Origin: Eledone cirrhosa
Lineage: Eukaryota
Assembly (NCBI GenBank): GCA_964016885.1
Contig: OZ024743.1
Location: 228,904,001 to 228,968,000, forward strand
Direction: 5' to 3'
DNA length: 64,000 nt
Shown here: positions 50,916 through 51,406 of the stretch, piece by piece
Numbering within the stretch: the stretch's first letter is position 1
Layout of the letters: each line of letters begins with the position of its first letter
The notes under the pieces: generated by a model
Databases searched by the model: none
Told to the model about the DNA's origin: nothing
The model's input: only the letters and a program-made list of their open reading frames with translations
Translations under genes and position numbers: made by a program

Positions 50916-51406
50916 GTACAGTAGTATGTATATATACATACATACATGCACACATATATATATGTACGTATGGATTCACCGAACATTTATTATAATGCTC
51001 GGTGTGTTTGTAAACAAACATCCCGTATTAAGCCATAGTGTCTAGCAACCATCGTTGCTCGTTTGTTCAACACTGACAAAGGAACGCTGTACTAGTTTCA
51101 AGCTTATTAGCTATCATCAGCAACGTATACCTTCCTGCTAGATGATTGAACGTCTGAAAGTATATACTTTCCTTATGCAAATTAACGGCTGAGTAGCCCA
51201 ATACGGGATGTTTGTTTACAAACACACCGAGCATTATAATAAATGTTTGGTGAATCCATACGTACATATATATATGTGTGCATGTATGTATATATACATA
51301 CTACTGTACATCTGTATACATATATGTATGTATGTATACATACTTATATTTAAGTAACAGCCGTACTAAGAGTGGGAAATGAAATTTTGTTTCATTTTTT
51401 CCGTTT
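50916..51406 (-). mobile_element. Second, diverged copy of the hammerhead retrozyme-like element, with inverted arm
   Basis: 51050-51198 is homologous (reverse complement) to ~12275-12425. 50916-51029 is inverted at 51200-51309. 51310-51406 matches the 12590-12690 end. A 35-bp direct repeat flanks it at 50850-50884 and 51427-51461. Confidence 0.8.
51084..51126 (-). ncRNA. Minimal type-I hammerhead ribozyme
   Basis: Minus strand: ACGUUG-CUGAUGA-U-AGCU-AAUA-AGCU-U-GAAA-CUAG-UA^CAGCGU. Confidence 0.85.

Follow-up and report, generated by a model that had tools for sequence, protein, structure and literature searches.

The 64,000-nt stretch of the Eledone cirrhosa genome analysed here (the window) contains two copies, A at 12 kb and B at 51 kb, of a repeat family with heterogeneous members and a type I hammerhead motif, and a BLAST search of the window against itself revealed these two copies only. 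With modest confidence, we lean towards an interpretation of the family as a non-autonomous, pLTR-derived unit of the retrozyme type, ~466 nt in length, which would be copied in trans by the protein of a Penelope-like element (PLE).

The non-LTR retrozymes of metazoans (Cervera & de la Peña 2020, PMC7229834) have been proposed to derive from PLEs as non-autonomous elements (Li, Clavereau & Pollet, bioRxiv 10.64898/2026.07.22.740005). Type I hammerhead retrozymes with a likely PLE partner (PMC7229834), as well as their derivation from pLTRs (bioRxiv 10.64898/2026.07.22.740005), are already in print, and the proposal that PLEs mobilise retrozymes has so far rested on co-occurrence and on pLTR homology in vertebrates. 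If an invertebrate family combines a ribozyme of the retrozyme type with the full PLE footprint of a fixed tail and an inverted arm, the footprint itself would directly support this proposal. The added value is modest, and the repeat likely represents a new, otherwise ordinary addition to a group that is already known. No description of the family was found in the literature searched with an octopus taken as the host, including the available part of PMC13282606; supplements, Repbase or Dfam may already have it.

Organisation of the two copies

Copy A includes a unit of 466 bp (12228–12693, plus strand) that consists of 5' hairpins, a palindrome, the hammerhead, downstream hairpins, a TA-rich part and a tail of 56 nt (12635–12690). 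It is preceded by a partial tandem of the 3' end (12060–12227, plus strand; 168/168 positions identical to 12526–12693), the tail of which runs straight into the 5' part of the unit with a period of 466 bp. Further upstream lies an inverted arm (11840–12053, minus strand), the reverse complement of 12421–12634 (212/214 identical), and a 6-nt spacer separates it from the partial tandem. The tail is absent from the arm and is found in the direct copy only. At 12046–12059, the inverted arm starts in the loop of a predicted hairpin (12412–12430 region), followed by the 6-nt spacer.

Copy B was given a start at 50916 in an earlier note on this DNA, but its actual extent is 50891–51406, where an inverted arm is joined to a direct 3' piece. 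The ribozyme and the 3' end are both located there as that note had it, though on opposite strands. The arm (50891–51202, minus strand, reading 51202→50891) is 5'-truncated, holds the ribozyme and lacks the tail, while the direct 3' piece (51200–51406, plus strand) includes the tail of 54 nt (51353–51406), which holds ACTAAGAGTG.GAAATGAAATTT. The two pieces meet head to head and have AAT (51200–51202) in common, i.e. a 3-nt microhomology at the inversion junction, and they are identical in 131 of 143 aligned columns. About 20 nt are missing from the TA-rich part of the arm. The arm ends with ATTTA, and its end point within the element coincides with that of the arm in copy A, so that both inverted arms stop 56 nt (A) or 54 nt (B) before the 3' end; the arm end of copy B sits in TA-rich sequence, and its placement is less sure.

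Copy B is flanked by an exact duplication of 35 bp (50850–50884 on the left and 51427–51461 on the right, both plus strand), which is likely a target-site duplication (TSD). The 3' end of copy B is separated from the right duplication by a 20-nt AT run (51407–51426), which is not matched by a similar run ahead of the left duplication and may have been added at integration.

The inverted layout is present in two of two copies and the partial tandem in one of two. Both insertion sites are TA-rich or (TA)n, which agrees only weakly with an AT-rich target because the window itself is rich in TA repeats.

Variation in the family was followed in sequencing runs. Four of the 24 runs listed were aligned to 50970–51250, with 5,484 (X1), 1 (X4), 9 (X6) and 6 (X12) contigs, and some words of the sequence were present in 20 of the 24; none of the 24 is recorded as RNA. 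Summed contig depth is not copy number, and X1 may be the source of the window itself. In X1, 35 contigs have loose ends that extend past 51202 and agree with the 5' part of copy A over up to 26 listed letters, and a loose end in X12 diverges after 14. Thus, copies A and B derive from one and the same unit, of which B is a truncated version. Since the loose ends do not reach the tail-to-head junction of copy A, this junction may be a one-off template jump. None of the listed contigs spans the inversion junction of copy B, an absence that carries no weight. One X1 contig has an opposite-strand joint at 51158/51201.

The tail starts with A-GTAAGT in copy A and A-GTAACA in copy B, followed by TACTAAG and a pyrimidine tract (12635–12690 and 51353–51406). 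GTAAGT/GTAACA is, as we take it, a splice-donor-like word. The pLTRs of PLEs often contain introns.

The hammerhead motif

The type I hammerhead motif of copy B (51081–51131, minus strand) has its ribozyme at 51126→51084 and its core from 51120, and cleavage is predicted between 51090 and 51089. Its counterpart in copy A (12347–12389, plus strand; core from 12353) has a predicted cut after 12383. Stem I of copy B comprises 6 bp (51126–51121/51089–51084) and is followed by the core (51120–51114), helix II (51113–51100), which consists of a U·U pair and 3 bp closed by the loop UAAUAA, the sequence GAA, and a palindromic ACUAGU (51096–51091), inside which the 2 bp of helix III form. Beyond helix I there is a GG-UAU bulge (3-nt/1-nt), after which helix I continues in a predicted extension (51065–51151, minus strand; helices 51151–51145/51071–51065, 51141–51136/51078–51073 and 51133–51130/51082–51079). 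The bulge and the loop, in our assumption, resemble the Schistosoma tertiary contact.

As the earlier note stated, the core CUGAUGA-U-AGCU..AGCU-U-GAAA-CUAG-UA is identical in letters in copies A and B, and the stem II loop varies between AACA and AAUA, which gives UAAYAA over both copies. The motif includes C3 U4 G5 A6 N7 G8 A9, G12 A13 A14, A15.1-U16.1 and H17 together with three helices, of which helix I is open. The one departure is at the base of helix II, where U·U replaces the G10.1-C11.1 pair. This pair is not exclusionary, as U·U is a described functional variant, found in the axolotl retrozyme HHR_Amex2 (PMC7229834) and in other natural hammerheads (PMC3088659).

No Rfam model matched at its gathering score anywhere in the window. 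Below it, the full length of the Hammerhead_HH9 model (RF02275) aligns with 51138→51067, scoring 22.5 bits (E=0.0037) as compared with a gathering score of 52, and the sequence differs from HH9 in having U10.1·U11.1 rather than G-C and a stem III of 2 bp. The miRNA matches below gathering in the same search were rejected as TA-repeat noise. Ribozyme pattern scans gave no match in metagenome contigs, viral contigs or prokaryote genomes; the first pattern had N7 fixed as U and therefore misses the commonest form, which the later scan of metagenome contigs allowed.

When the hammerhead fold was imposed, the monomers had energies of -1.5 (A) and -1.7 (B) kcal/mol versus minimum free energies of -11.6 and -10.5. 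Imposed double hammerheads reached -19.8 (A·A), -20.2 (B·B) and -14.6 kcal/mol (A·B, which contains G·G and U·U), and co-folding of the dimers gave minima of -27.7, -24.4 and -23.0 kcal/mol, respectively. The hammerhead is therefore the minimum-energy fold of neither monomer nor dimer. A 2-bp stem III would be too weak alone, and for this reason cleavage is proposed to proceed in a double hammerhead formed through the palindromic ACUAGU. The 6-bp/4-bp form with a palindromic helix III is the canonical metazoan hammerhead and works as a dimer, while the ribozymes of PLEs in metazoa are mostly minimal variants with a long helix II and a short helix I (PMC4209133).

Mode of mobilisation

The family resembles metazoan non-LTR retrozymes in its canonical-size type I hammerhead, the U·U at the base of helix II, the non-coding, self-paired unit of a few hundred nucleotides, the long flanking duplication and the heterogeneity of the copies. 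The 466-bp period of copy A falls within the published size range, given as 150–450 bp (PMC7229834) and 51–972 bp (bioRxiv 10.64898/2026.07.22.740005). Unlike the tandem arrays of retrozymes, copies A and B comprise at most 1.36 units per locus, with one ribozyme, an inverted arm and a tail. An active retrozyme by definition has at least two consecutive units, each with a ribozyme (bioRxiv 10.64898/2026.07.22.740005), and neither copy in the window qualifies, since each locus holds one ribozyme.

The arrangement of the ends is that of hammerhead pLTRs of endonuclease-bearing PLEs (PMC4209133; PMC3846280; PMC8557442; PMC11167929), with which the copies share the inverted 5'-truncated arm, the partial tandem, the one-sided tail, a TA-rich target, palindromes and a palindromic helix III suited to dimers. 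Such elements have been described with partial tandems, an inverted truncated copy, a one-sided tail of 30–40 bp and microsatellite targets (PMC8557442; PMC3846280). In vitro, the PLE tail lies between two start sites of the reverse transcriptase (RT), and AT-rich DNA is cut by the PLE on both strands (PMC11167929). The copies differ from these pLTRs in that no open reading frame (ORF) is seen, the tail has 54–56 nt rather than 30–40, and the ribozyme, situated ~300 nt from the 3' end, has the 6-bp/4-bp form and not the minimal PLE form. Furthermore, the 35-bp duplication at copy B is longer than published PLE TSDs, which have 8–10 bp.

In the interpretation that we favour, tandem or read-through transcripts would fold into a multi-hairpin RNA, and the ribozyme would cut as a double hammerhead to release RNA of unit length, possibly circularised. 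A PLE protein with RT and GIY-YIG activities would then nick AT-rich DNA on both strands, and reverse transcription would start at two sites separated by ~55 nt, so that a tailed and a tailless cDNA would result, joined head to head.

It is possible, though clearly less probable, that the copies are instead 5'-truncated ends (pLTRs) of an autonomous PLE, that the 466-bp period of copy A reflects a single template jump, and that selection on a full-length parent keeps the fold and the ribozyme. PLEs are as a rule truncated at the 5' end, with ends in inverted and partial-tandem arrangement (PMC8557442; PMC3846280), truncation is plain in four of the window's five pieces, and pLTRs are largely non-coding. 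An ATG is conserved in the tail, and the ORF of Adineta elements starts within the pLTR and the tail (PMC3846280). However, the frame that follows this ATG closes after 16 codons in copy A and is shifted in copy B, and the 6-bp/4-bp form of the ribozyme is typical of retrozymes, whereas metazoan PLE ribozymes were described as minimal (PMC4209133). An RT and GIY-YIG ORF is absent from both copies, and no ORF sequence is seen in the listed loose ends, which at 30 letters each at most are short for this purpose. In copy A, stops occur in all three plus frames across the tail-to-head junction. A coding 5' part was ruled out by these stops and by indels between subfamilies that shift the reading frame.

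A protein-coding PLE is located 6 kb away (2360–5913), 5'-truncated and situated in TA repeats. It includes an open frame of 488 aa (4861→3395) with YRDDG and a CxCx5C linker, as well as a GIY-YIG-like domain at the C-terminus with CxxC and CxH; relatives have RWK and DKT. Judging from these motifs, it would belong to the Hydra clade; assignment to Naiad was rejected, as the endonuclease is C-terminal and the motifs fit Hydra. An asparagine-rich insert of ~60 aa between the RT and the linker is like those reported for Adineta Penelope (PMC3846280). The element gave no Pfam match, and its BLAST comparison with the LINE of the window was also empty. Its inverted pLTRs of ~1 kb (998/1034 identical) each have their own type I hammerhead (2455, minus strand; 5812, plus strand) with a long helix II. 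Its inverted layout is the same as that of copies A and B, but it shares no sequence similarity with them and has no tail. No partner PLE sharing its ends with copies A and B was found in the window.

The window further includes remnants of LINE-type reverse transcriptases (19324–22500, 28017–28556, 34420–36156, 46274–46744 and 59199–59952), one of which (19698–22112) retains endonuclease and RVT_1 domains; the remaining pieces are fragments of a second family. Mobilisation of a SINE-like retrozyme by a LINE, such as the RTE-like elements of the window, with inversion by twin priming, would account for the 3-nt microhomology and the long TSD-like duplication at copy B. In twin priming, the 5' part is inverted and the 3' part is not duplicated. 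In both copies, the 3' part is repeated in the arm, whose end lies at a fixed point short of the tail, and no similarity was detected between the copies and the LINE ends in the window. Hence, although LINEs have been named as possible retrozyme partners (PMC7229834), this explanation is very improbable.

Sequence variation and RNA structure

Identity between copies A and B is 59/70 upstream of the ribozyme, 47/51 in the ribozyme, 18/19 in the next 19 nt, 44/65 in the block that follows and 14/36 thereafter. The strong downstream divergence reported earlier is thus confirmed from ~20 nt past the ribozyme, but does not apply to the nearest 19 nt. The ribozyme is far better kept than the far downstream block (p=5e-6), whereas it is not measurably better kept than the upstream flank (Fisher p=0.27).

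In the X1 contigs, the ribozyme has five variable sites, all of which fall on N7, on H17, in loop II or on either partner of a single stem-I pair. Apart from that pair, the variants at or above 3% are C at N7 (81% of depth), a loop II variant (33%) and U at H17 (4.8%), and N7 and H17 are positions tolerant of change. Hence, the core identity observed between copies A and B does not hold family-wide, while none of the 11 invariant core bases varies at ≥3% in the four runs.

It had been proposed that equal conservation of the motif and its flanks in a large alignment would speak against selection on the RNA, and the data go some way in that direction: with two sites private to copy B dropped, the density of variable sites in X1 is 5/51 in the ribozyme and 14/180 in the flanks (p=0.58), a comparison in which downstream sites are under-counted because diverged downstream subfamilies fail to align. 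This density and the p=0.27 above are what would be expected if the ribozyme and hairpins were passengers that reflect recent common descent, with the double change arising by chance and the divergent block by replacement or recombination. The ribozyme mutants that did not impair PLE insertion in vitro, which proceeded without need for ribozyme cleavage (PMC11167929), point the same way. We consider this unlikely, given the confinement of the X1 ribozyme sites described above and the persistence of hairpins in a region of low identity.

The third pair of stem I is changed on both sides, as noted earlier: copy A has G·U at 12350/12386, and copy B has U·G at 51123/51087 (minus strand). In X1, the 5' side is U in 62%, G in 21% and A in 17% of depth, and the 3' side is G in 48%, U in 52% and A in 0.3%. 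These shares are unphased, and they imply that at least ~14% is unpaired at this position, probably as U·U. All five contigs that span both sides in X4, X6 and X12 are paired, with G·U in three (records 16 and 20 of X6, record 12 of X12), U·G in one (record 15 of X4) and U-A in one (record 10 of X12); phase was read from depth sums in small runs, the five contigs represent approximately three lineages, and two of the five contigs have a depth near 2. Thus, G·U, U·G and U-A are seen in phase, and A-U and U·U are implied. An origin of the wobbles from decayed G-C or C-G pairs was rejected, as none of the runs lists C on the 5' or the 3' side.

The position is therefore a weak, tolerant pair that moves among several states, not an example of stringent covariation. 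In the favoured interpretation, it would drift among paired states, probably through U·U, with selection on source RNAs keeping the fold. A second double change between copies A and B, at 51133/51079, has X1 shares of 0.6% and 25% and is mostly unpaired in X1, which indicates that double changes seen in two copies can hide unpaired states.

A more elaborate proposal is that PLE machinery moves the family as a retrozyme that forms circles and in which the third stem-I pair serves as a partner code, and we regard it as highly speculative and improbable. Helix I would form between two molecules in the double hammerhead, so that G·U/A-U and U·G/U-A subfamilies would each cut within their own class, and molecules of different classes would face each other with G·G and U·U mismatches (computed -14.6 kcal/mol, as compared with -19.8 and -20.2 within classes). 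If true, such a code would keep co-expressed subfamilies catalytically apart. The many natural variants provide a ready data set for covariation analysis and dimer cleavage tests.

The 16-bp palindrome (12302–12317 in copy A and 51156–51171 in copy B), predicted to form a 6-bp hairpin, is present in both copies together with TTTGTTTACAAAC and the 3' block, in agreement with the earlier note. It has two matches in the window versus 0.13 expected, and none of 100 shuffles reached two. Its retention does not extend to all subfamilies, as in one of them (record 15 of X4 and record 10 of X12) it is broken by an 8-nt deletion at 51152 and a change at 51170; a loose end matching this deletion occurs in 15 X1 contigs.

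Three hairpins are predicted downstream of the ribozyme in the diverged part (50977–51059, minus strand). The first (51059–51044) is kept in copy A through three one-sided changes, the second (51020–51005; GUUUG-UUUA-CAAAC) has no substitution at ≥3% in the four runs, and the third (51004–50977) is replaced in copy A by a different hairpin at the same place. Both copies have the same predicted chain of hairpins, with z=-2.9 for copy A (12226–12510) and z=-2.8 for the minus strand of copy B, 1 of 200 shuffles being as stable in each case. The opposite strand of copy B has z=-2.2 (5/200 shuffles), and the strand asymmetry of the fold is accordingly weak. The downstream block alone has z=-4.5 in copy B and -0.4 in copy A. 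Among 51 predicted pairs outside the last hairpin, nine differ between the copies; pairing is retained in eight of these, and a change found in copy B only disrupts the remaining one.

The 39 alleles listed over 212 positions were evaluated with 20,000 permutations. When a partner's allele was allowed to rescue a pair, three alleles broke a pair or a core base as compared with 14.1 expected (0/20,000, P<5e-5), and in the strict form eight did so as compared with 15.0 expected (P=0.012), values that argue against the passenger explanation. For the 21 alleles at ≥3%, P was 0.009 (lenient) and 0.15 (strict). As the structure itself was drawn from the folds of copies A and B, the fair values are those for the 17 alleles absent from copy A, where three breaking alleles were found versus 6.2–6.4 expected (P=0.05–0.07), and for the nine of these at ≥3% (P ~0.2). 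These non-circular values, and the small number of phased lineages, leave the passenger explanation more room.

Taken over the family-wide pattern of variants, support for selection on RNA structure is moderate; the earlier claim is upheld to that extent, though more by this pattern than by the G·U/U·G swap. A function of conserved blocks as cis signals for the RT, suggested at the same time, is plausible for the 3' block, which corresponds to the PLE tail, and for the GUUUG hairpin. For the palindrome it is weakened by the subfamily in which this element is not intact.

The arms of the 5' hairpin (12265–12298 in copy A and 51174–51202 in copy B) consist of ATGCAAAT and its reverse complement, perfect in the B-type sequence and with one mismatch in copy A. 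We take ATGCAAAT to be an octamer motif, and TTGTTTAC in the conserved downstream hairpin presumably resembles a forkhead site; both may have a promoter role.
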